DNA of 10,889 bases from Promethearchaeota archaeon (GCA_004524535.1 SDNY01000120.1:1-10889); one strand, 5' to 3'. Counted from the first letter of the stretch, positions 83 through 10,730 are shown. Made by a program: numbers and translations. Notes: generated by a model not told the origin, from the sequence alone.

Positions 83-147
83 ATAAATTCTTTCTCTACT
101 TTTTCTTTTTTAAGAATAAAAAAATTTTCTTAATTTATGGATATTAA
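83..147 (+). repeat. 65-bp exact direct repeat, left copy (attL-like or duplicated target)
   Basis: ataaattctttctctactttttcttttttaagaataaaaaaattttcttaatttatggatattaa is identical base for base to 10666-10730. It includes ATGGATATTAA, the start of the ORF at 10720, which here stops after 7 codons. Confidence 0.97.
88..111 (+). terminator. Oligo-pyrimidine (T-rich) tract, candidate archaeal terminator after the priS-like gene
   Basis: ttctttctctactttttctttttt starts 13 nt after the stop codon. Confidence 0.4.
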
Positions 148-388
148 AATTATTTTTTAATAAATTCAAATTAGTAGATTAAAGTATATTTTACTCTTAA
201 TTTGAAAAAAGAATTTAGTCTTAAATTTTAGCTAAAAGAAATTTCTAAAAAAATTGAAAGAAGTTTTATTTTCCCTGAGTTTAATCCCTAGTTGCGTTAA
301 ACAAATTATTAAGAATTTGGTAATATCAGCATGATTTGTAATTTAAACTTCACTACCAATTCCGCCAGAGCCATTATACATGTAAATC

Positions 389-1372
389 CTAAGGTTCGTA
401 TAAAGATAAATCTGGTCTGCCCCATTTGGTGTGATTTGGATATTTTTTTTCCTTAATTTGACGGAATTTTGATGGATATTTTATCCACTCTGGAATTGGG
501 TCAAATCTATTTTCATAAAAACTTAATTCACACAAACCATTTAATTTAAAAATAGAGTCAGGAACAGATTCCAAGCGATTATCCCCTACGTAAAGCCTTT
601 CTAATGACGAAAGATCACCGATCGATTCCGGTAGCTCCTGAAGCTTATTGGAATATAAATATAAATCCTCTAATCTTTTTAAATTACCGATAGATTCAGG
701 GAGGCTTCTTAATTTGTTATGATGTGCCTGGAATCTCCTTAAATTTGTTAAATTGCCGATCGATTTAGGTAACGCGGATAGCTGATTATTGGATATGCTC
801 AAATATCTCAGATTCTTAAGATTTCCAAATGATTCGGGAAGTTCAAGGAGTTGATTATTGGATATGCTCAAATATCTCAGATTCTTAAGATTTCCAAATG
901 ATTCGGGAAGGCGTCTAAGGTAATTTTCATATATTTTTAGTGAAATCAAATTTTTGAGGTTCCCAAACGATTTTGGTAATACTTTTATTTTATTATTGAT
1001 TATGCTTAACCTTTTTAATGAATGTAATTCACAGATAGACTTTGGAAGCGTCTTTAATTTACTTTTGTATATATCCAACTCCTCTAATAACTCTAATCCA
1101 CCAATTGATTCGGGAAGCTCAGTTAAATGATTATTATTTAGGATTAATTCTTTCAGCCATCTTAAATTACCGATTGATTTGGGGAGCAATGTAAGATCCA
1201 CTCCATTGCATTGAACCCTACAAATGTGATTGTCTGTCGTAATAAAGCTTGCTAAGGGTGTGTTTATACCAAATTCAGTAACAAGTGAAAATTCAATATC
1301 TAATTCTTGCTCTAATTCACTAAGAAAAAGTGCCTCTGGTTTCAATAACATAGCTTCTCTGAATTTAATCAT
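389..1372 (-). CDS. Leucine-rich repeat protein (about 10 repeats of 23 aa, LxxLPxSIGNLxxLxxLxLxxNx)
   Basis: Regular LPESIG/LPKSFG 23-aa LRR units through most of the ORF. Likely start is ATG at 1370-1372 (MIKFREA...); the ORF track starts at TTG 1381. A TTTAAATA TATA-like box lies about 30 nt upstream. Confidence 0.95.
   Translation of the reverse strand: MIKFREAMLLKPEALFLSELEQELDIEFSLVTEFGINTPLASFITTDNHICRVQCNGVDLTLLPKSIGNLRWLKELILNNNHLTELPESIGGLELLEELDIYKSKLKTLPKSICELHSLKRLSIINNKIKVLPKSFGNLKNLISLKIYENYLRRLPESFGNLKNLRYLSISNNQLLELPESFGNLKNLRYLSISNNQLSALPKSIGNLTNLRRFQAHHNKLRSLPESIGNLKRLEDLYLYSNKLQELPESIGDLSSLERLYVGDNRLESVPDSIFKLNGLCELSFYENRFDPIPEWIKYPSKFRQIKEKKYPNHTKWGRPDLSLYEP
783..910. 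repeat. Intragenic tandem duplication, 69-bp period (59 bp identical: 783-841 and 852-910)
   Basis: Both copies encode LPESFGNLKNLRYLSISNNQ with identical nucleotides. Confidence 0.95.
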
Positions 1373-1433
1373 GATTTTCAAATAATTTTAATCAATTAGC
1401 TTATTTAAATATTATGAGGGTATGAATTTTGTG

Positions 1434-4400
1434 TTATTTATCTCCTAAATAATTATCTATCTTTTGCTGGGGGTCTTTCTTAGGAAAAGCATTATCTCTC
1501 AGAATATCTAATAAACCATGATCCTTAAGATATCTTTCCCAACCCTTTTCCATTAAATCTTCTCCATATTGAACAGGAAGAATGACCTCAAGCATCTTTT
1601 TATCGATTTCGCTATTTTTCTTTAATTTATTATAATATTTTTCTTTAAATGGTCCGAACGATCCCTTAGCAAAGAATTCAGTAGCATCCTTAAAATTATC
1701 ATAATAGGTCGAAGTGAACCGAATAAATTCAGCAAATTCCTCCTTATTCAATACTAATACATGTTCGAGCATAGGTATTTCATCTTTTGGTCGATATAAA
1801 TCATCTCTAAAAGGCTTTCCGCTCTTTTCTGTACCCGTAAGAACGATAACTAATAACTTATGCTTGCCTTGAAATCCTCTCTGTGCATGTTCGACTATAG
1901 ATTTAGGATCAGTTGTATGGATAAACTCAATATTCATCTGCTTAATATCTCTCATCATGCTCCCTGTTATTTCAAATTCCAGCTGGTCAGTTACTTTCTG
2001 TTTTCTAAAAATATAATTTGCAAAAGCGCTTCCTTCTTCAAGCATGACAGAAACATCAGGTCTGTGTCTATTATATTCAGAAAATGTCTCATAATATGTA
2101 GGCGCTTGCCACTTATCACGTAGATAAGTCAAGGTCCAATAGATATCGCAAATATGTTCAAATCTTCCTAAATTGCTCAATCTCTCTGTATTGATAGTTT
2201 CCAGATTAGAGAATTCTACAATCTCAGGGTAACTATATCCTTCCCTTACTATCGCATCTAAGAAGCCACTATATTTATAATTCCGTAACCACGTATAAAG
2301 AGGAGCCGTATCTGAAGAAAGACTCACACCCTCACCTTCCTTTACAGCTCCAAGAAAATCTTTGTCACCTAAAATCTCTTTCTGTAAAAACAGCGCAAAA
2401 TCTTCAATTGTATGCAAATTGGCATAACGCTGACCATAATACCCTTTTCTTTCTTTAAAATCTTTATAATCAGTTATACTATCTATTGCCATAGAAAGGT
2501 AATTTTTTGCAGTCCCTATACTAATAGAATACATTTCTGTAAGATCATTATATATATCCTTGATATGTTTATATTTAATAGGATCCTCCATCATATCTAA
2601 TAAAGCCATAAGTCTTTCTAATTTTCCTCTTATATTACTTTTAATTTTTCCTTCAAACCCAATCTCTGTTAAGATTTGATCTACACTCAATTTACGCATT
2701 TTCTTATATTTCATTAATTCATGGGTAGCTTTTAAAAAGGAAGCCACATCAACTTTCTTATATGCAGATTTTTGCCTTGAAGCCCCTATACTATGAAAAT
2801 ACGCTCCGAATTTTTGAAGTAAACGTTTAACAAACGTATTTCCATGTCTGTCACTGTATTTATTAAAAAGAAGAGCTTCTAATACTTTTTTAGAAATTCC
2901 AAGGAAATTGTATTGTCTATCGTATTCTGAATAAGATTTAAACTTAATGAAATCTATATTATGCGGGTTTTCAGGCAAAAGTTTATCGTATAATGCCGTA
3001 AGCTCGATATAAGCTTTTATATAATCATCAGAATATCTATGTCGTAGTATATCAAATTTAACTATTTTTTTATGAATTTGCAATCCCTTTTCCTCACCAT
3101 ATTTATTTTTACATGTATCTATAAATCTTTCCTTAATTTCTTTCTTTTTAAGATTGTATTCATCACTTAATTCTCCAAGTGGCTTTGATTGATATAATGT
3201 GACTATATCTAAATCTTCTACTTCACCAATATCTTTTAATAAATTGTCAAGTGCCTCTTCTAAGCTTATTTTAGGTTCTGGCTGACCACGACTACTCTTA
3301 CTTTTCTTTTTGTCTTGTGTATACGCTTCCTTGGGGTCAAACGCTGCTGCTTGTTCTCCTATAACGACTATCGGTCTTAATAAAATAATCTCGCCAGACT
3401 CGGAGATCTCATATGTTCCTTCCAGAAATCCGTCCAAAGAAATAACTTCTCTCAACACTTTACGATTGGCAATAACTTTGAGATTTAGTATTGGATTGAG
3501 TCGATAAGTTTGCTTAATAACCCTTTTGGCTTGACCTAACGGCATTCCCTTCTCTATATATATGAACTTAACCGCCTCATCCGGCGGAACCCCCGCAAGA
3601 CGGAACGCAATCAGTCGGCAGTCCTCCTTGGCAGCTCCCTCTTTAATATACGCCTTTGCTTTATACTGCTCGTACTGTCCCTTACTATTTTTTACCTTAT
3701 AGGTTAAATCTTCGGTCTTGAACTTTATATCCGTCGGGGCGTCTTCGTCGATAAGCTCGACCTTCTTTTCGAGCATGTTTTCAAATACATTCTTCTGCTG
3801 TTCTTCCCAAATCGAAAGACCTGCCTCGTCGTAAATCTTGAAACGGTGATTTAAATCGAATTTGGTCGTTCCGTACGAAGGAATGGGCTTCATTTCATTT
3901 TGAATTTTAGCGAACCCTTCCTGATAAGAGCGTTTGTCTACTAAGTGGTGTTGTCTGGGGTTGTGGACCTCTTCGTTGTCTAACGGTGCGAAGAAATCTA
4001 AAAATTCTTTTATTGCTTTAGCCTTTTCTTCGGCAACTATCTGTTTATATGTTTCTTTGAGCGACTTTTTGGCAGAGTGTTGAGCGTATGCACCATAGGC
4101 AGTGGCGATGGTTCCAACGGCAATTATAGCTCCGATGCCGAAAGTTGCCGCAGCAATAGTAGCAAGAATGGCAACCACTTTTCTCGTTATACCCGCTTTT
4201 CTTGTAATCTCCTTTTGTCTTTGTTTTAATTGTTCTTCCATTTGTATATTTGCCTCACTTTTTTCTGAAGTGGAAGCTTGGTCCTGCTGTTCAATATTAG
4301 TCTGTTGATTAATATTAGGATTTACACCACCAGTAAGGGCTTCTCTGGCAGACTCAGCTACGATACTCCATACAATTTCATCATATCTGTCGCCTCCTAA

Positions 4401-4667
4401 ATCTCTCGCAAACTTGCTGGCAATCGCCTCCACCACAGGATCAAGGAATACCTCTTGTATTGGCTCAGATATAATTGCCCATGTAGCGGTACCGGGCAGA
4501 GCATAAAGAATAGCAGTGCTTAGCACAGTCACAGCCACTGTGTAGGCGATTTCATTTACTTTTTCTTGAGCTTGAACAGCTAATTGGGATTGATAATAAT
4601 ATTCCAGTACGGCAGCCTGAATGTTCTGCATCGCGGCGATCTTGGTAAGTTCGGGATCGTTATTCAC
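1434..4667 (-). CDS. Large multidomain protein, probably N-terminally truncated: two hydrophobic Gly/Ala-rich helices, a ubiquitin-like domain (~aa 351-442), a Lys-rich region and a C-terminal PD-(D/E)XK-like nuclease domain; polymorphic-toxin-like
   Basis: 1077-aa ORF with a GTG start. Hydrophobic segments IAYTVAVTVLSTAILYALPG and VVAILATIAAATFGIGAIIAVGTIATAYGA. Ubl-like RLIAFRLAGVPPDEAVKFIYI...YRLNPIL...GEQAAA. Nuclease-like G(RF)EH...YYE...RPD...NIEF...RGFQ...LLVIVL. The coding call is strong; the domain calls are by eye. Confidence 0.75.
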   Translation of the reverse strand: MNNDPELTKIAAMQNIQAAVLEYYYQSQLAVQAQEKVNEIAYTVAVTVLSTAILYALPGTATWAIISEPIQEVFLDPVVEAIASKFARDLGGDRYDEIVWSIVAESAREALTGGVNPNINQQTNIEQQDQASTSEKSEANIQMEEQLKQRQKEITRKAGITRKVVAILATIAAATFGIGAIIAVGTIATAYGAYAQHSAKKSLKETYKQIVAEEKAKAIKEFLDFFAPLDNEEVHNPRQHHLVDKRSYQEGFAKIQNEMKPIPSYGTTKFDLNHRFKIYDEAGLSIWEEQQKNVFENMLEKKVELIDEDAPTDIKFKTEDLTYKVKNSKGQYEQYKAKAYIKEGAAKEDCRLIAFRLAGVPPDEAVKFIYIEKGMPLGQAKRVIKQTYRLNPILNLKVIANRKVLREVISLDGFLEGTYEISESGEIILLRPIVVIGEQAAAFDPKEAYTQDKKKSKSSRGQPEPKISLEEALDNLLKDIGEVEDLDIVTLYQSKPLGELSDEYNLKKKEIKERFIDTCKNKYGEEKGLQIHKKIVKFDILRHRYSDDYIKAYIELTALYDKLLPENPHNIDFIKFKSYSEYDRQYNFLGISKKVLEALLFNKYSDRHGNTFVKRLLQKFGAYFHSIGASRQKSAYKKVDVASFLKATHELMKYKKMRKLSVDQILTEIGFEGKIKSNIRGKLERLMALLDMMEDPIKYKHIKDIYNDLTEMYSISIGTAKNYLSMAIDSITDYKDFKERKGYYGQRYANLHTIEDFALFLQKEILGDKDFLGAVKEGEGVSLSSDTAPLYTWLRNYKYSGFLDAIVREGYSYPEIVEFSNLETINTERLSNLGRFEHICDIYWTLTYLRDKWQAPTYYETFSEYNRHRPDVSVMLEEGSAFANYIFRKQKVTDQLEFEITGSMMRDIKQMNIEFIHTTDPKSIVEHAQRGFQGKHKLLVIVLTGTEKSGKPFRDDLYRPKDEIPMLEHVLVLNKEEFAEFIRFTSTYYDNFKDATEFFAKGSFGPFKEKYYNKLKKNSEIDKKMLEVILPVQYGEDLMEKGWERYLKDHGLLDILRDNAFPKKDPQQKIDNYLGDK

Positions 4668-5265
4668 CGAGCGATATTTTTCTAATTTAATTAGAAAATT
4701 CGCCGGATTGTTCTTTAATGTGAATTTCCCTAAATTCGATAATAGATTTTTTCAACCAAAAAAGAATTCTAAGACAGCTATCAAAAACACCAAGCAATTG
4801 AAAGACTATTCTGAGGAATTCAGATTTATTGTAGGGCAAAACGATTATATAACTAAGGAGTTTTTTCAATTACTTCATGACTTTCGGACTCGAAAAGTAA
4901 ATCCTAGTAATTTAGAGTTAGGCCAATTAAATAATCCACAAAAACTGTATAATTATTTACGGAATCATCATTGGTCTGTTAATATTCCAGAAGAGTTCTT
5001 AATTGATTGGATCAGTATGAAACTTACGGGACACAAACTTAGTGATATCGATATTTCCGATTTTAACCATATCTTCAATAAGTTAGGCATTTCATATGAT
5101 TTCCTTAAGAATATTGGAAATAAAAGCAATTCTTTACTTAATACAGAAAAAAATCCAAGGAAGAAATCTATCAACGGACCTTCTTCAATTACAGATTTTC
5201 CCCAACTTAAGAAATATATGTTAAAGAGACTAGAAGATATTGAAAGCCTTATAGACGAAAATTGA
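4621..5265 (+). pseudogene. Hypothetical protein, probably the 3' remnant of a longer gene (real coding part from ~4675)
   Basis: Open frame of 214 codons. The first ~16 codons are only the antisense of the 1077-aa ORF, and the next in-frame ATG is far downstream (a TTG at 4708 is possible). The rest has protein-like composition. GC falls at about 4675. Confidence 0.5.
4671..4703. repeat. Inverted repeat at the junction of two divergent ORFs
   Basis: ttttctaatt (4678-4687), t, aattagaaaa (4689-4698): perfect 10-bp arms, flanked by gcga (4671-4674) and tcgc (4700-4703). Confidence 0.7.
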
Positions 5266-5323
5266 GAGATTTAAATATTTTGAATCAATTATTATTTCAT
5301 CTTTCTTTATTATTTTTTTTAAA

Positions 5324-5554
5324 ATGATGTCTGAAAAGAAATACCATTGCCCTCGATGTGGCAACGAAGAAATTGCTGATTATACAGATTCGTTTGATTG
5401 TCCTTCTTGTAACCTTGAATTTGATAAAAAAGATTGTGATGAGTTAGAAGAGTCTCAAATCCTCTCAGTCGAAGAAAAATTAGGAATTATTAAAGGATTA
5501 GGGCTCGATATAAATAAAGAAACAAATTCTTCTAATTATTCAAGGGATATTTAG
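5324..5554 (+). CDS. Small Cys4 zinc-ribbon protein
   Basis: CPRCG...CPSC motif with an acidic tail, 76 aa. TTTAAATA upstream at about 5270. Converges on the next gene with a 1-bp gap. Confidence 0.8.
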   Translation: MMSEKKYHCPRCGNEEIADYTDSFDCPSCNLEFDKKDCDELEESQILSVEEKLGIIKGLGLDINKETNSSNYSRDI

Positions 5555-5555
5555 T

Positions 5556-6269
5556 CTATGAGAGATTAATATTGTTTCTTTTTAAAACCCATTCCTCTAC
5601 TAGAAATTTTTGATTAATACCTTTTTCTGGTTTGAATTTCGAGTGTATTGATGATTTTGGAATCCATACTTCTTGACCTGAATTAAAAACAATAAATAAT
5701 GCCTTCTCTGTTTCAGCTTTAATCGATCCTTGGACTTCAATAATATTTTTTCCTTCAGGAACAGATTGTTTTACAGTATTTATATTCATATCAACTTTCT
5801 CGACCTTTACTTCTGTTTGCGCTTTTGTTGTATTAGGACCATTCTTCTCCAATTTCGATGTATTAGATACTGTTGCGAATTCAATTTTTTCTTTAATTAG
5901 ATGTTTCATAAGTAATTTAAGTATTTCAATCTGAGCTTCACCAAGTAATTTGGAATACTCTCCTATTTTTATCCAGAACTTATTCTCACCATTTTTCTCC
6001 CAATTAAGAGAGATTTGAGTTTTATTTTCTTTATAGGAATGAAAGCCTGACCACGATTCAATCTTGCGTTTTAAGACTTTTAAAATCATAACCATTTCAT
6101 CTAAAGAGACCTTAATGGTCTTACCTTCTCCAGAAGATGGTTTTTCCCATTCGCCATTTTCTTTTTTTTTTATACATTTTATAAAAATATAAGGTTCACT
6201 TTTTGATGAACTACTTATTATCAACCCTGTGGTTTGGCCAAAAAAACTTTGACTATGATTATTTGTCAT
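5556..6269 (-). CDS. Two-domain hypothetical protein: N-terminal domain possibly Whirly/PC4-like (ssDNA-binding) and a C-terminal small beta-barrel (ETEKA...WIPKS...W)
   Basis: Long clean ORF. ATG at 6267-6269 is preceded by a GGTGA Shine-Dalgarno-like motif; the alternative GTG at 6278 overlaps the upstream stop. Two globular segments joined by a low-complexity linker. The fold call is tentative. Confidence 0.75.
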   Translation of the reverse strand: MTNNHSQSFFGQTTGLIISSSSKSEPYIFIKCIKKKENGEWEKPSSGEGKTIKVSLDEMVMILKVLKRKIESWSGFHSYKENKTQISLNWEKNGENKFWIKIGEYSKLLGEAQIEILKLLMKHLIKEKIEFATVSNTSKLEKNGPNTTKAQTEVKVEKVDMNINTVKQSVPEGKNIIEVQGSIKAETEKALFIVFNSGQEVWIPKSSIHSKFKPEKGINQKFLVEEWVLKRNNINLS

Positions 6270-6274
6270 TATTT

Positions 6275-6499
6275 TCACCTTTCTAGATTATTTTTTTTTA
6301 TCTTCTTTATTTTCAATTTGCCATTATGAGTGTTAACGAGATAACGCCAATTATTTAAGGAAGAGAAAGGATATTTATGCCAAATATCTCTTATCATATC
6401 TGGATATAACTTTCCTACTTTTGACACAGATATCTCTAAATATTTACTACTATTTTGGGTTTCTTCTTGCAAAAGATTATTTTCACTTATAGACATCAT
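6275..6499 (-). CDS. Small hypothetical protein (74 aa), probably co-transcribed with the downstream gene
   Basis: ATG start with a TATA-like motif 22-30 nt upstream. The stop overlaps the GGTGA/GTG of the next gene. Confidence 0.65.
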   Translation of the reverse strand: MMSISENNLLQEETQNSSKYLEISVSKVGKLYPDMIRDIWHKYPFSSLNNWRYLVNTHNGKLKIKKIKKNNLER

Positions 6500-6520
6500 A
6501 ATTATAGTTCTATAGCAGAC

Positions 6521-6537
6521 ATATTTAAAGAAAAAAG
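6521..6537 (-). promoter_or_regulatory. TATA-box promoter with T-rich upstream element (cttttttc-TTTAAATA-t), copy 1
   Basis: 17 bp identical to 6925-6941, located 22-38 nt upstream of the ATG at 6499. Confidence 0.6.
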
Positions 6538-6574
6538 TAAGATTTTAAATAATCTAGACTGCTATAATTTTTAA

Positions 6575-6898
6575 TTAACTTGCTTTCGCTTTGCGAACTC
6601 TTAATAGTTTAGAACCAAAAAGTTCTAATTCTTTTATATAGTTTAGTTTTTCCGAGAAGTAAGTAATTTTCACATTAGAACCTGTATTCTTATCAACATT
6701 TCTTACAAAAAAATATTTATGTAGGTATTTGCCAATACACCATCTAATGACGATTCTCGGTTTTTTTCTTTGAGAGCTAAAACACCACCAATCTTTACAA
6801 CGCTTAGAGCAAAATAGATGCGTCGAAGGAGAGTGTTGCGTATTTACTAATCGAACCGGGTTTTTCTTAATAACTTTCCTACAATATTCACAAATCAT
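6575..6898 (-). CDS. Small basic protein with an N-terminal TRASH/FCS-type treble-clef zinc finger
   Basis: CEYC-x(23)-CSKRC, preceded by Phe (FCS motif). ATG start with a TATA-like motif upstream. Confidence 0.75.
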   Translation of the reverse strand: MICEYCRKVIKKNPVRLVNTQHSPSTHLFCSKRCKDWWCFSSQRKKPRIVIRWCIGKYLHKYFFVRNVDKNTGSNVKITYFSEKLNYIKELELFGSKLLRVRKAKAS

Positions 6899-6924
6899 TT
6901 TCTCAATACCTATGTCTATTCGTA

Positions 6925-6941
6925 ATATTTAAAGAAAAAAG
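6925..6941 (-). promoter_or_regulatory. TATA-box promoter with T-rich upstream element, copy 2
   Basis: Identical 17-mer to 6521-6537, located 27-43 nt upstream of the ATG at 6898. Confidence 0.6.
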
Positions 6942-6984
6942 AATAAAAAATTTAAATTAGAAGTTCTTTATGTTATTTGGCAAC

Positions 6985-7115
6985 AAAAAAAAAAAAGACT
7001 CCTGCCGCACCCTGGATTTTTGTCTTTTGGTTAGTGCACTTAGGTGCGCTATGATTTTGCCCTGCTTATCCTATATCATTTATGACCTTTTTATTAGGTC
7101 TCGCTGGCAGGAGTC
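6985..7115 (-). ncRNA. Candidate ~120-nt structured RNA (multi-branch fold) ending in a U12 tract
   Basis: 10-bp closing stem gactcctgcc (6997-7006) / ggcaggagtc (7106-7115). Internal stems gcacc/ggtgc (7007-7011/7043-7047), atgat/atcat (7051-7055/7075-7079) and gacct/aggtc (7084-7088/7096-7100). A12 at 6985-6996 is U12 on the minus strand. TTTAAAAA on the minus strand at 7139-7146. No family recognised. Confidence 0.45.
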
Positions 7116-7120
7116 ATCTT

Positions 7121-7146
7121 TTTAAAATTTCTATAGAATTTTTAAA
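7121..7146. promoter_or_regulatory. 26-bp near-perfect palindrome, candidate operator
   Basis: tttaaaatttctatagaatttttaaa: 12 of 13 positions pair around the centre of ctatag. Confidence 0.4.
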
Positions 7147-7265
7147 TTAGCTTCAAAATTATATTTATAATATATTCTTCAGGAGAAAAAAAAAACACAT
7201 ATTGAACTTCTTCTTTTATCTTTCATTAATTTTCCAGACACTTATGATTTAAATTAATAAAATTT

Positions 7266-7968
7266 ATGAGTATCCAAATGCAGTCTAAAGATTTTTTAGA
7301 TTCAAAAGATATAAGAAAAGACAGAACAAAGACTGTTCAAGGCAATAATAATTTAGATTCAGATCCCAATTCTTTGAAATGCCAAGAGTGCGGATCCACA
7401 ATTATAAAGAATTCAGAGCTTGGGGAGTCTTGCTGTTCAAAATGTGGGCTAATCACACAAGAGAAGGAAATAGAAAAAAAAGGAAACAAACAATTATAAT
7501 TTAAAAAGAAGCGTTAAACATAATAGGCATCCATCTAATAGAGTCCGTCAATTGAGAACTGGATTTTCGGAGATATTACGAATTGGAAATAATCTTGGTT
7601 TATCATCTCAGGTTATGAATGAAGCACAACTTCTCTTTGTGAAGGCTTACAATAAGAAATTACTAATAGGTAGGGGCGCCATCAAGATTGCGGTAGCAAG
7701 TTTATATATTGCTTGTCGGAGAATTGGTATATTAAAAACCTTTAAGGATTTAATAGATAGACCAGAATTGAATCCTAAATCAATTAAGAAAACAGTAACT
7801 ACATTAATTCTCTCATTTAACTTAAAACTTCAGACTTCTCAACCTAGTTTCTTTGTTTCTTCTTTTATCTCCCAATTGTTCCTTTCTTTATCTTACTCCA
7901 TATTTCAAGAAATTTTTCCACGCATTTTTCCTTTAAAGCATCGCCATCAGGCAGATCACAAATTTTGA
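7266..7968 (+). pseudogene. tfb: Divergent transcription factor B (TFB/TFIIB) homologue, frameshifted and C-terminally truncated
   Basis: 7266-7499 encodes the TFB zinc ribbon (CQECGS...GESCCSKCGLI). The +1 frame, open from 7474, encodes cyclin repeat 1 (LGLS...KAYNKKLLIGRG...ASLYIACRR...KTFKDL...P.FFVSSFISQLFLS). One fewer A in the A8 run at 7474-7481 fuses them. Similarity ends at about 7887 and cyclin repeat 2 is missing. Confidence 0.8.
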
Positions 7969-8215
7969 CAATCTTATCATAATAGAATTCAATTTCTCCT
8001 GACATATAAGCAAAACCTTTGTTTTTTCGGTTCTTCAAGATCAATTCTTTATTGTCTTTACGATATTGTTTAGCTCTTTTTTTCATAGCTTCCTTATGAT
8101 TCTCATAATATGTTATTTTCCTGCACTCGTCATTGCAAAATTTTTGCGCGTTATGGGTTTGAATAAAAATTCCCCCGCATCCTACACACGTTTTCAGAGT
8201 TTTTGGAGGTTTCAT
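7865..8215 (-). CDS. Small basic protein with an N-terminal Cys4 zinc finger (CVGCG...FCNDEC) and a Lys/Arg-rich helix; possibly 3'-truncated
   Basis: 116 aa. CxxC...FCxxxC followed by YYENHKEAMKKRAKQYRKDNKE, a pattern common in virus and mobile-element proteins. TTTTTC-TTTATAAAT upstream at 8255-8269. Overlaps the tail of the TFB ORF. Confidence 0.65.
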   Translation of the reverse strand: MKPPKTLKTCVGCGGIFIQTHNAQKFCNDECRKITYYENHKEAMKKRAKQYRKDNKELILKNRKNKGFAYMSGEIEFYYDKIVKICDLPDGDALKEKCVEKFLEIWSKIKKGTIGR

Positions 8216-8429
8216 TTTTTACACGTTTTTTATTTATTATCGTATAATCCATTTATTTATAAAGAAAAATTTTTCTTCTCTCAGAAAATAAGTTTCAAAA
8301 TCGGATCATAAAGACAATTTTTACAAATTCTTGAATTATCTTTTTCAAAAATTTTACATACTCTTTTCTTTTATATAATCAAGATGATTACCAATTTTAT
8401 CAAGATATAATTTTCAGAGAGAGTGTAGT

Positions 8430-10340
8430 ATGACAGAAAACCAGACATCCAAAGATTTTGATAGTAAGAAAGAAAAAATTGAGTATTTAGTGAAAGAGAT
8501 TCAAAGACACCGCGATTTATACTATAATGACATTCCAGAGATTTCCGATGCTAAATATGATTTATTGGAAGATGAACTTAGAAAATTAGATCCAAGCAAC
8601 CCTATACTTACCACGATAGGAGAGGACAGTTCAGAGCTTTTCGAGAAAAAAGAGCATATTATTCCAATGGGTTCACAAGATAAGGTAACCACGCCGGAAG
8701 ACTTCTTAAAATGGGCAAGAAAAAGGCAACTTCCAAAATACATCATTCAATTCAAACTAGATGGGATAAGTATAGAACTTCAATATGACAAAGGCACTTT
8801 CATTCGAGCAGTTACCAGAGGAGATGGAAATGTCGGAGATGACGTGTCGGCAAATGTAAAAAAAATGGAAGGATTTTTACCTCACCTTAATTCCAATTTT
8901 ACTGGGGCCACAAGAGCAGAGATTTTATTATTTCACGATATTTTTGAGAAGAAATATTCTGATAAACAGAATTGTAGAAATGCTGCGGCAGGGATAGTAC
9001 GGAGAAAAGACGGAAAAGGCTGTGAAGATTTAAACCTTATTCATTATGATTCTATTTCTTTAGATGAAAATGTAGAGTTCACTTCTGAAATTAACAAGCT
9101 GAAATGGTTAAAGGAAGAGGGATTTCCCACAATAAAGACAAAGACAGTTAAAACCCCCCAAGAAGTTATTTCAGTGAGAGAAGAAGTTATGAACAAAACC
9201 CGGGATATGCTAGAATACGATATTGATGGGCTGGTGATAAAAGGAAATAAGATCGATTTAGAAGATATGAAGAGAGCAAGACCTATGAAACAGATCGCGT
9301 TTAAGTTTCACGCAGAAGAGATTGAAACCACCTTATTAGATGTCGAATGGAGTATTAGCGGGGCAAATTATACTCCTGTGGCTATCGTGGAAACCGTGAA
9401 TTTAATGGGAACAAATGTAAGTCGAGCCAGCCTTGCCAACCCCAATTTAATCGAGGAACTTAACCTAAAAATCGGCAGTGAAGTGGTTATAAGTAAAAGA
9501 GGAGATATTATCCCCAAGATTGAGAGAGTTATCAAGACACCACCCAATGCGAAAGACATAAATACGCCTGGGATCTGTGAAGTCTGTAAAACCGACCTTA
9601 TAAATGAAGGTACAAGATTATACTGCCCAAATGAAGAGTGCCCTAAAAGGCAGTATCATAGAATAACAAAATGGATAAAGAAATTGGATATTAAACACTT
9701 TAGCGAGAAATTAATGCTGAAAAAATTATTTGATACAGGGAAAGTCAGAAAGATCTCTGATCTCTATTCATTGAAAGTTTCGGATCTTACTAAATTTGAG
9801 GGAGTTAAGGAAACCTCTGCGAAAAAGGCATTAGACAACCTATATTCTGTTAAAGAAGTTCCATTGGCAAAATTTATTGCCGGGTTTGATGTGGAAAACA
9901 TTGGAGAAAGAATCGTGGTTAAAGCAGTGAATGATAGGTTTGGTTCCCTTGAGAAAATTTACAACGCCACAATACAAGACTTATCGAGAGTGGAAGGGTT
10001 CGCACACATCACAGCCAAGAATCTATATGACGGATTACATAAATTGTATCCTGATATGGTTGAATTATTAAATACAAACAAAATAAAAATTAAGGAGATT
10101 AGTATGTCAGGCAAATTAGAAGGGAAGAGTTTTTGTTTTACGGGCAAATTGGAAACAATGAAAAGGGCAGAGGCAGAGCAGATTGTTATCGAGAACGGAG
10201 GAGAGCCAAAGAAAAGCGTCGTGAAAGATTTATCCTATTTGGTGACAAACGAAACCACGCCTACCGCTAAATATAAAAAAGCCCAAGAACAAGACACTCA
10301 AATAATTTCAGAAAAAGAATTTTTGGATATGGTCAAATAA
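8430..10340 (+). CDS. ligA: NAD+-dependent DNA ligase
   Basis: Domain Ia (YYNDIPEISDAKYDLL), motif I KLDG, AVTRGDG..GDDVS.N, NCRNAAAG, YDIDGLVIK, AFKF, OB fold (RASLAN, KRGDIIPKI), Cys4 finger (CEVC...CPNEEC), HhH motifs and a C-terminal BRCT (GKSFCFTG). Confidence 0.98.
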   Translation: MTENQTSKDFDSKKEKIEYLVKEIQRHRDLYYNDIPEISDAKYDLLEDELRKLDPSNPILTTIGEDSSELFEKKEHIIPMGSQDKVTTPEDFLKWARKRQLPKYIIQFKLDGISIELQYDKGTFIRAVTRGDGNVGDDVSANVKKMEGFLPHLNSNFTGATRAEILLFHDIFEKKYSDKQNCRNAAAGIVRRKDGKGCEDLNLIHYDSISLDENVEFTSEINKLKWLKEEGFPTIKTKTVKTPQEVISVREEVMNKTRDMLEYDIDGLVIKGNKIDLEDMKRARPMKQIAFKFHAEEIETTLLDVEWSISGANYTPVAIVETVNLMGTNVSRASLANPNLIEELNLKIGSEVVISKRGDIIPKIERVIKTPPNAKDINTPGICEVCKTDLINEGTRLYCPNEECPKRQYHRITKWIKKLDIKHFSEKLMLKKLFDTGKVRKISDLYSLKVSDLTKFEGVKETSAKKALDNLYSVKEVPLAKFIAGFDVENIGERIVVKAVNDRFGSLEKIYNATIQDLSRVEGFAHITAKNLYDGLHKLYPDMVELLNTNKIKIKEISMSGKLEGKSFCFTGKLETMKRAEAEQIVIENGGEPKKSVVKDLSYLVTNETTPTAKYKKAQEQDTQIISEKEFLDMVK

Positions 10341-10345
10341 TCTAT

Positions 10346-10394
10346 ATTTTTCTTTTTTTTCATTTTATATTTCTTTCTTTTTTTTCTTTTCTTT
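10346..10394 (+). terminator. Long T-rich tract downstream of ligA, candidate archaeal terminator
   Basis: Several oligo-T runs directly after the TAA at 10340. Confidence 0.55.
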
Positions 10395-10665
10395 AAATAA
10401 ATAGAATGTTTAATATCTGTAAACATTTTTTCTTTAGTCATATAATTCTTAATAAAAATTAGCAGGTTTTCAGGGACTATTGACTATGAGGACGATTATA
10501 CTGAAACTATTGATAAAAAAAGAGTTTCTTAAAATTTCAGCGTTATTTATTAGACAGAGTAAAGTAAAAAAATTAAGAAATCAGAATATTCCGCCAGAAG
10601 TGTTCTTGTAGGATTTTCAGAGTATTTGTGGTCAGGATTGGAGTGCGTGAGATGAAGGAATATAT

Positions 10666-10730
10666 ATAAATTCTTTCTCTACTTTTTCTTTTTTAAGAAT
10701 AAAAAAATTTTCTTAATTTATGGATATTAA
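10666..10730 (+). repeat. 65-bp exact direct repeat, right copy (attR-like), containing the start codon of the downstream gene
   Basis: Identical to 83-147; ATG at 10720-10722. Confidence 0.97.

Follow-up and report, generated by a model that had tools for sequence, protein, structure and literature searches.

Bacterial polymorphic toxins, among them the CdiA/CdiI, Rhs, and LXG/WXG systems, are the closest described counterparts of the archaeal locus presented here. In the survey of these toxins (PMC3482391), variation of the C-terminal-most domain is given as the hallmark of the class, a cognate gene lies directly downstream, the members are mosaics formed by recombination, orphan cassettes of tip and partner keep a stretch of constant sequence, and a leucine-rich repeat (LRR) class of immunity proteins is named (Imm-LRR). 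The survey describes classical polymorphic toxin systems as rare in archaea and as acquired from bacteria. The DNA analyzed, which will be called the window, is a 10,889-nt contig from a Promethearchaeota archaeon (GCA_004524535.1, SDNY01000120.1) and is the entire contig C70 of a 3.66-Mb genome (G000) that is 99% complete. It carries P0001, an open reading frame (ORF) of 1077 amino acids, and directly downstream the gene for an LRR protein, P0002.

The P0001 family is like the bacterial toxins in its directly downstream partner gene, its mosaic recombination, its orphan cassettes with retained constant sequence, and a partner type for which an immunity class is on record. It is unlike them in that no secretion or trafficking domain, RHS/FilH repeats, PT-TG, PT-VENN, or HINT was detected in the family, which instead has a new N-terminal domain (N-domain) followed by two membrane helices, a ubiquitin-like domain (Ubl) at the junction with the tip, and an Asgard host.

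In the prePAAR/Rhs effectors of the type VI secretion system and in similar toxins, N-terminal hydrophobic helices are placed before the C-terminal toxin. The helices of P0001 also precede the tip and could insert in a target membrane and pass the tip across it, whereas neither a PAAR or Rhs cage nor a chaperone gene was observed in the family and its helices lie in the middle of the protein after a 630-residue domain. Eukaryotic ubiquitin fusions, such as ubiquitin-ribosomal proteins and polyubiquitin, are cleaved after the ubiquitin C-terminus by deubiquitinases. The Ubl of the P0001 family likewise directly precedes an unrelated polypeptide, and a stand-alone Ubl ends in a precursor-like ...QAGG-F, but the Ubl tails within the family are degenerate (EQAAAF, QQRGN, QQKGAG, QQRGRG) and cleavage after them is only predicted. 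A preliminary description of this DNA likened the LRR protein to ribonuclease inhibitor, and an LRR protein that is proposed to neutralize a nuclease does recall the pairing of ribonuclease inhibitor with RNase A. The repeats of ribonuclease inhibitor are 28-29 residues in length. Because those of P0002 are 23-residue units of the SHOC2/PIRL type, P0002 does not belong to the ribonuclease-inhibitor class, and the nuclease is PD-(D/E)xK-like and not RNase A; as a statement about LRR class the likeness had to be given up. In archaea, the hypervariable module of Thermococcales (PMC8416519) is also a locus of conflict or self-nonself type in which a large protein is encoded upstream of variable genes, although it is centered on immunoglobulin domains and is compared here by description only.

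We favor the reading that P0001 and the LRR gene form a polymorphic-toxin-like conflict cassette, in which the LRR protein is the cognate immunity protein and the Ubl is the junction for both swapping and processing, and we put the chance that this is correct at about even. Sequence comparison indicates that the C-terminal tips of the family are exchanged by recombination exactly at the Ubl tail and that every tip type is accompanied by a downstream gene of its own. Among the genomes searched, the cassette system is confined to a single order of Asgard (Loki-type) archaea. The preliminary description had proposed a polymorphic toxin-immunity pair that acts between cells. The variable tips and the linked, co-varying gene were borne out, whereas the delivery part was not: because none is recognizable, the cassette is likened to polymorphic toxins and is not filed as a member of a known system, and because neither a signal peptide nor a domain for secretion or delivery was detected, action between cells stays a presumption. 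What emerges looks like a toxin/antidote system in archaea that is so far undescribed; no paper describing the P0001 family was found by title or start of abstract, in searched literature that leaves out most subscription journals. The family appears to be home-grown in Asgard archaea rather than a bacterial import.

Constant front and exchanged tips of the P0001 family

The family is multicopy and unannotated in G000, which holds at least eight related frames. In three of them (C117, C153, and C155, of 1495-1593 aa), residues ~630-1080 align with P0001 aa 1-~450 at 43-53% identity, three others (C32, C43, and C48) begin at contig ends and match P0001 from aa ~293, and C150 is a diverged member. 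The pairwise identity of C117, C153, and C155 is 68-74% across the first ~1040-1090 residues; beyond this point the tip of C117 is unrelated to those of C153 and C155, which are alike to residue ~1420. In the same manner, C32, C43, and C48 are 81-91% identical for ~146-178 aa, after which no mutual similarity was found, and the tip of C43 resembles that of C155 (33% identity). When seven copies were compared, the mean pairwise identity was 45-63% up to P0001 aa 443 and ~14% from aa 444. The exchanged C-terminal region amounts to 420-640 aa in the family. As in polymorphic toxins, the members are thus alike except at the C-terminal-most domain.

Kyte-Doolittle analysis confirmed the two Gly/Ala-rich hydrophobic helices that the preliminary description had seen in P0001. 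They are near the N-terminus of P0001 but not of the family, as the full-length members put them ~630-830 residues into the protein, behind an N-domain of ~630 aa. In a nearly closed congeneric genome (G001), both members are full-length (1450 and 1352 aa) and follow the plan of an acidic N-terminus, the ~630-aa N-domain, helix 1, a loop of ~100 aa, helix 2, a linker, and the tip, with no leader peptide at the N-terminus. A third, weaker Gly-rich hydrophobic stretch was observed in a predicted helical hairpin of the C153 N-domain (aa 243-279; locus L011 4-1920), and because of it the membrane topology of the full-length members is uncertain. A sequence search of the PDB with one full-length member gave no match. 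The structural rows obtained for the N-domain, which are picornavirus 2A/3C proteases and phage neck/tailspike pieces (Z <= 5.8 or E >= 0.14), were discarded as too low in score for use.

P0001 had no match in Pfam, NCBIfam, PHROG, or PADLOC, and a search for homologous proteins returned a single match. When 1.8 billion representatives were searched exhaustively without a profile, 94 matches in three groups were obtained; those to P0001 aa 5-200 sit within proteins of 742-2457 aa, and those to aa 466-1077 are tip-only proteins. The membrane module as a whole was found in proteins from 700 to more than 3000 aa with unrelated C-termini, in agreement with the preliminary expectation that relatives of aa 1-200 would lie within much larger proteins. 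Stand-alone tips of 576-618 aa include the P0004 cluster (613, 613, and 618 aa) and those at loci L056 and L063, and the tip type of the window is also present on an N-domain protein of at least 2008 aa (L057). These stand-alone or orphan tip cassettes, together with the recombinational replacement of tips, are further features found in polymorphic toxins. Some relatives (P0223 and P0028; loci L067, L070, and L073) are very large, have open frames of 2632-3377 aa, with 5977 aa for one cluster member, and carry long unannotated N-terminal extensions ahead of the N-domain.

The membrane module was found in six of 60 relatives and, across the phylum, in 12 of the 301 genomes sampled, all 12 of which belong to two families of one order, and the flanking genes differ among the family loci. 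The family is one whose constant region belongs to no Pfam, NCBIfam, PHROG, or PADLOC family, was found in only one Asgard order among the genomes searched, and is built on two parts best known from eukaryotes, a Ubl at the swap junction and LRR partners.

P0001 is itself a mosaic. Its nucleotide identity to C155 begins abruptly at 4692, 25 nt ahead of the GTG (99% over 192 nt), and is 95-98% in window 4670-4400; it falls to ~35-60% with any full-length paralogue in window 4310-3860; and in window 3770-3680 it is 95-100% with C32, C43, and C48. Judged from these identities, members of the family have recombined repeatedly and left this mosaic. Upstream of the P0001 start there is an in-frame stop, and the stop-to-stop frame begins at 4751. 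The possibility that the N-domain of P0001 is encoded upstream in another frame was considered and rejected: tblastn and a six-frame comparison found no N-domain coding sequence anywhere in the window.

Partner genes, tips, and the ubiquitin-like junction

The preliminary description placed the LRR gene about 60 nt downstream on the same strand, and the distance is indeed 52-61 nt, depending on the P0002 start codon, with both genes on the minus strand. The ATG at 1372 is the more likely start, rather than the TTG at 1381. P0002 consists of tandem LxxLxLxxN repeats (PF23598 E 3.9e-42, PF13855 E 6.9e-34) and has no signal peptide; a homologue search returned 2714 generic LRR proteins, with no clear orthologue among them. 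Relatives of the window tip were located with a closer 7-row alignment (A2) at eight other loci, seven metagenomic and one genomic. At five of the eight, an LRR gene of 316-320 aa lies 42-60 nt downstream, and these five partners are 47-52% identical to P0002 over nearly the full length. Of these five LRR genes, one is behind the long N-domain protein at L057 and one, intact, stands beside a 177-aa tip remnant at L062; among the three other loci, an intact stand-alone tip at L063 has a different neighbor gene. Beyond the tip-LRR pair the genes vary by locus and include Fen1, an esterase, a methyltransferase, and ribosomal protein S2.

The preliminary description had cautioned that the LRR gene appeared to have its own TATA box and could be an unrelated neighbor. 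A TATA-like motif does precede the gene, whereas the second part of the caution is removed because the window tip type keeps an LRR partner at five of the eight other loci. On this comparison the LRR gene is not a chance neighbor of the window tip.

The family as a whole also has linked downstream genes. Every copy in G000 with a readable 3' flank is followed by a same-strand ORF that starts within ~60 nt; this is an LRR gene after C70 and C48 and encodes unrelated proteins of 133-223 aa without a Pfam match after C155, C117, C153, C32, and C43. Both G001 members precede LRR proteins (379 and 324 aa). Of 13 additional loci, drawn from seven genomes, an LRR gene is on the same strand at three and convergent at two. 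At five more, a different ORF on the same strand, at least 150 aa long, follows within 55 nt, and the last three have small or distant ORFs only. LRR genes thus flank nine of the 22 family loci (seven on the same strand, two convergent), against a background of ~35 LRR ORFs per genome. The tabulation that the preliminary description had called for therefore gave small, variable, same-strand downstream genes with a strong enrichment of LRR genes, and the downstream gene appears from sequence to co-vary with the tip. Chance adjacency was considered and rejected, with a binomial P of ~1.5e-6 for at least four LRR genes at nine loci given ~35 LRR ORFs and an assumed ~3300 genes, a value that is only indicative, since these loci lack independence. 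When aa 740-1077 were co-folded with the LRR protein, with no alignment for the LRR chain and no controls, the score was 0.00 and the mark 0.32, which weighs neither for nor against the pairing.

Two of the partners are related to each other. A G001 partner (L044 12531-13505) has a C-terminal half that is LRR, and its N-terminal half shares 35% identity with the 136-aa partner of C32 (C32 2165-2578). Some partners are therefore fusions of a small domain with LRRs. No BLAST similarity was found between the C32 tip and the G001 tips, though the downstream proteins share a domain.

The nuclease-like C-terminus claimed for P0001 holds at the level of a modeled fold. The model of aa 740-1077, built from an 18-row alignment, has a mean predicted local distance difference test (pLDDT) score of 88.3 and a predicted template modeling score of 0.86. 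In Foldseek the top rows are restriction enzymes (MspJI, PspGI, HindIII, and Ecl18kI), with nothing significant (best E 0.044, for MspJI). The VIA aligner matched AF1548 (Z 6.9, 131 aa, root-mean-square deviation 3.6), the Can2 nuclease domain (Z 6.5, 118 aa, root-mean-square deviation 3.1), and the R2 restriction-like endonuclease (Z 6.2-6.4), values that fall within the range this aligner calls common. In a second look, most of the 50 listed rows were PD-(D/E)xK nucleases, including a CdiA-CT toxin (4g6v, Z 5.0). Residues G834, H838, E860, D871, N912, D/E914, Y/F932, G934, K/R937, and V942 are kept in 16-18 of the 18 rows, and E860, D871 (the 'PD'), D/E914, and K/R937 are conserved in 17-18 of the 18 sequences. 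The tip is assigned a PD-(D/E)xK-like fold, with its alpha-beta-beta-beta-alpha-beta core, because the list of structural neighbors is nearly uniform and these residues are conserved. Other tips of the family have a GIY-YIG match (G001, E 7.8e-5, above the Pfam cut-off), a LAGLIDADG_3 match (C48, E 2.3e-4, just below the cut-off), and weak treble-clef matches (C155 and C43).

The extreme C-terminus of P0001, QQKIDNYLGDK, is shared with distant tip relatives (..RIDNFLGDK and ..DDNFLGEK; ..NFLGDK/..NFLGEK in P0008/P0027). The QQKIDNYL segment resembles a PCNA-interacting, PIP-box-like motif, and two of the relatives that share the tail fit the pattern Qxx[I]xx[YF]L. From its sequence, the tail could be a docking motif.

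The Ubl that the preliminary description had placed in P0001 was recovered through related proteins. P0001 aa ~340-415 match mostly small Asgard proteins, and PF00240 was found in nine of the 11 that were scanned, in seven at E <= 1.4e-4 (P0077 1.3e-9, P0080 5.9e-8, P0093 1.1e-7). P0001 itself has no PF00240 match at E <= 0.1, and the assignment is transitive because only its matching proteins reach this family. G000 also encodes an 86-aa ubiquitin-family protein of its own (C84; PF00240 E 4.1e-9), which is 70-99% identical across the class and aligns with the Ubl of the family. The end of this stand-alone Ubl, ...VMATQAGG-F, falls in the alignment exactly on the final residues that the family conserves, where the tails are VVIGEQAAAF in the window and MAQQRGN, MAQQRGRG, MVQQKGAG, and EQAASG in the paralogues. 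The variable region therefore starts at the would-be cut site of a ubiquitin precursor. In a member from another genus (L071), PF00240 is found at aa 1752-1813 and a GIY-YIG match follows ten residues later. The Ubl is missing from some members, namely those of G001 and L057. The gene for the 86-aa protein is followed after 160 nt by a 506-aa LRR gene (C84 25460-27401; locus L074 6461-8399). A conserved Ubl-LRR pair as a general rule was rejected, since an LRR gene follows the Ubl in only three of 20 relatives' loci.

Proposed mechanism and competing readings

In the mechanism that we propose for the cassette, the tip would be a toxin that cuts DNA or RNA, and the cytoplasmic LRR protein would serve as the immunity protein by binding the tip and holding it inactive in the producer. 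The hydrophobic helices may anchor the protein in a membrane or carry it into one, and the Ubl tail would be both the recombination junction and a likely cut site for a Ubl-specific protease that frees the tip. The fuller version, in which such a protease in the producer or the attacked cell cuts after the Ubl tail and so detaches the nuclease from the membrane while a rapidly evolving LRR scaffold acts as an all-purpose antidote adapted anew to each tip, is tentative, and we consider it rather doubtful as a whole. The window copy is most likely an orphan or reserve cassette of tip and immunity gene, because it is without the N-domain, is a patchwork of two paralogue lineages, and lies in a 10.5-kb insertion. 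It would keep 1.4 kb of constant sequence through which it could recombine into a full-length locus, and its LRR gene could be expressed from its own promoter-like motif.

A number of observations weigh against a toxin with a cognate immunity protein. For a protein that has two helices but lacks a leader, the simplest topology is one in which the Ubl and the tip stay in the cytoplasm of the producer. No known signal peptide, trafficking, secretion, or pre-toxin domain was recognized in any member with Pfam, NCBIfam, and PHROG, and the N-domain model has a pLDDT of 63.9 and no PDB/BFVD match at E <= 0.001. The tip resembles nucleases in structure with modest scores (Z <= 6.9, Foldseek E >= 0.04), and there is no Lys at +2 of the second acid, the conserved K/R937 being 23 residues on, in Y-Q-G-x-x-K. 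The Ubl of the window is without the C-terminal Gly-Gly tail (EQAAAF). On the side of the partner, the LRR gene is missing at three of the eight loci with the window tip (the stop-interrupted L056, the 200-aa fragment L059, and the intact L063), the 3' neighbor is not LRR in 13 of the 22 family loci, and at 316-330 aa the LRR partner seems larger than most immunity proteins. Lastly, the window copy of P0001 has no N-domain and only a GTG start, and it may not be expressed.

The predicted cytoplasmic topology is what would be expected if the family served in antiviral defense or abortive infection, as a membrane-anchored sensor with a swappable nuclease effector and an LRR protein as sensor or brake, the tip being freed at the Ubl on infection and degrading the nucleic acid of its own cell. 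LRRs act in this way in eukaryotic innate immunity, effector swapping is also known among defense systems, the structural neighbors of the tip include Can2, Card1, Cap4, NucC, LmuA, Avs3, and HamA, and the distribution of the family is patchy and island-borne. We nevertheless regard this explanation as fairly unlikely. Among 14 proteins scanned with PADLOC-DB 2.0, nine of them family members, none had a credible match (the only row was the LRR protein against LmuB, E 2.9e-4, 17 bits), no NTPase or other signaling domain was found, and at least eight recombining copies in one genome, stand-alone tips, and remnants of the L062 type are signatures of toxin/immunity systems more than of defense. 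Extreme tip turnover, mosaicism, and siting in insertions are also unlike a regulatory housekeeping family, and 48 of the 60 relatives and 289 of the 301 genomes have no match to the membrane module. These points make it quite improbable that the family has a non-conflict function, as membrane-tethered DNA or chromatin proteins that are released by Ubl-type processing in the manner of membrane-bound transcription factors, with the LRR and other partners as regulators. Such a function would agree with the predicted cytoplasmic termini, with the first half of the tip (aa 466-740), which has no assigned fold and has weak helix-turn-helix and TFIIB-repeat matches in relatives, with the LRR neighbor of the stand-alone Ubl in G000, and with the PIP-box-like tail QQKIDNYL of P0001, although this tail is not kept in P0004, P0027, and P0033.

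PD-(D/E)xK, GIY-YIG, LAGLIDADG, and possible treble-clef nucleases, the tip families seen here, are classical homing-endonuclease families. The tips could thus be parts of a selfish nuclease cassette that cuts tip-less alleles at the junction, or the large protein could belong to the virion or the transfer machinery of an integrated element; the 10.5-kb insertion with its 65-nt repeats, ligase, TFIIB fragment, and HNH/NinG-like ORF points in this direction, as do the weak phage neck/tailspike-like matches of N-domain aa 505-637 (Z 5.0-5.8). Yet three scans of IMG/VR viral contigs found no relative of the membrane module or the tip, P0001 has no PHROGs match, family scans recognized no integrase, capsid, or packaging gene in the window, both G001 loci lie among housekeeping genes with no element genes nearby, and homing leaves the conserved LRR partner unexplained. 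Both forms of this explanation seem to us very unlikely.

If the toxin-immunity reading is true, the P0001 family would give a first handle on how the mostly uncultured Asgard archaea compete or police kin, and it would supply natural nuclease/LRR pairs in which the evolution of specific inhibition by LRR scaffolds can be studied. Through the Ubl junction, the uses of the ubiquitin-like systems of Asgard archaea would become directly testable. If release at the Ubl is also true, ubiquitin-type processing and LRR recognition would be combined in a conflict system of the archaea that are usually deemed closest to eukaryotes.

The window copy and its surroundings

Features of the window with their coordinates, counted from its first nucleotide
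Feature	Coordinates	Strand	Remarks
P0001, 1077-aa ORF	1434..4667	-	GTG start; 5'-truncated mosaic member of the membrane/Ubl/variable-tip family
P0002, LRR protein	389..1381	-	330 aa from TTG; 327 aa from ATG at 1372
Hydrophobic helix 1, aa 39-58	4494..4553	-	Kyte-Doolittle; in the best-conserved block IAxMQ..LEYYYQ..EIAYT
Hydrophobic helix 2, aa 163-191	4095..4181	-	Kyte-Doolittle; 29 residues, Gly/Ala-rich
Ubl domain with N-terminal extension, aa ~312-450	3318..3734	-	By homology
Constant/variable junction, aa ~444-455	3303..3336	-	Identity drop among 7 paralogues
Variable C-terminal region, aa 451-1077	1437..3317	-	Also stand-alone elsewhere
Restriction-endonuclease-like PD-(D/E)xK core, aa ~824-985	1713..2198	-	From model and conserved residues
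Conserved C-terminal tail ...QQKIDNYLGDK, aa 1067-1077	1437..1469	-	Similar tails in P0008 and P0027
P0001-P0002 intergenic spacer	1382..1433	.	AT-rich TATA-like motif atatttaaataa ~30 nt before the LRR ATG
Upstream limit of homology to full-length paralogues	4668..4692	-	Match to C155 begins at 4692
Left 65-nt perfect direct repeat	83..147	+	8 nt after the stop of PriS (primase small subunit), window ~75
Right 65-nt perfect direct repeat	10666..10730	+	56 nt before the Gins51 start (10786)
10,518-nt insertion in the PriS-Gins51 spacer	148..10665	.	Between the 65-nt repeats

The P0001 and LRR genes are borne on an insertion between two replication genes. Contig-end overlaps of 149 nt join C72, C70, and the reverse of C57, where C72 ends with PCNA, PriL, and PriS and C57 ends with Gins51, eIF2-alpha, and EF1-alpha. 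In all six congeners in which Gins51 was matched, PriS lies immediately before it, ~130 nt apart, and the insertion is absent; the two partial PriS/Gins51 spacers in G000 sum to the native length.

In addition to P0001 and the LRR gene, the insertion carries a TFIIB-repeat fragment, an NAD-dependent DNA ligase, and several ORFs with no family match or a weak one (zinc finger, NinG/HNH-like). The ligase is a full-length LigA (window 8430-10340, plus strand; TIGR00575 E 4.2e-157). NAD-dependent ligases are of the bacterial/viral type and unusual in archaea. A 138-aa ORF with a single TFIIB cyclin repeat (window 7552-7968, plus strand; PF00382 E 1.1e-14) has the look of a gene fragment or of a small protein that acts like a decoy, and it is overlapped on the opposite strand by a 116-aa ORF with weak NinG/HNH-like matches (window 7865-8215, minus strand). 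Window 5305-6274, which comprises a 240-aa ORF (5556-6278, minus strand) and adjoining DNA, has copies of 72-84% identity on C139, C27, C174, and C135, and because of these copies parts of the insertion belong to a family of repeated elements in G000.

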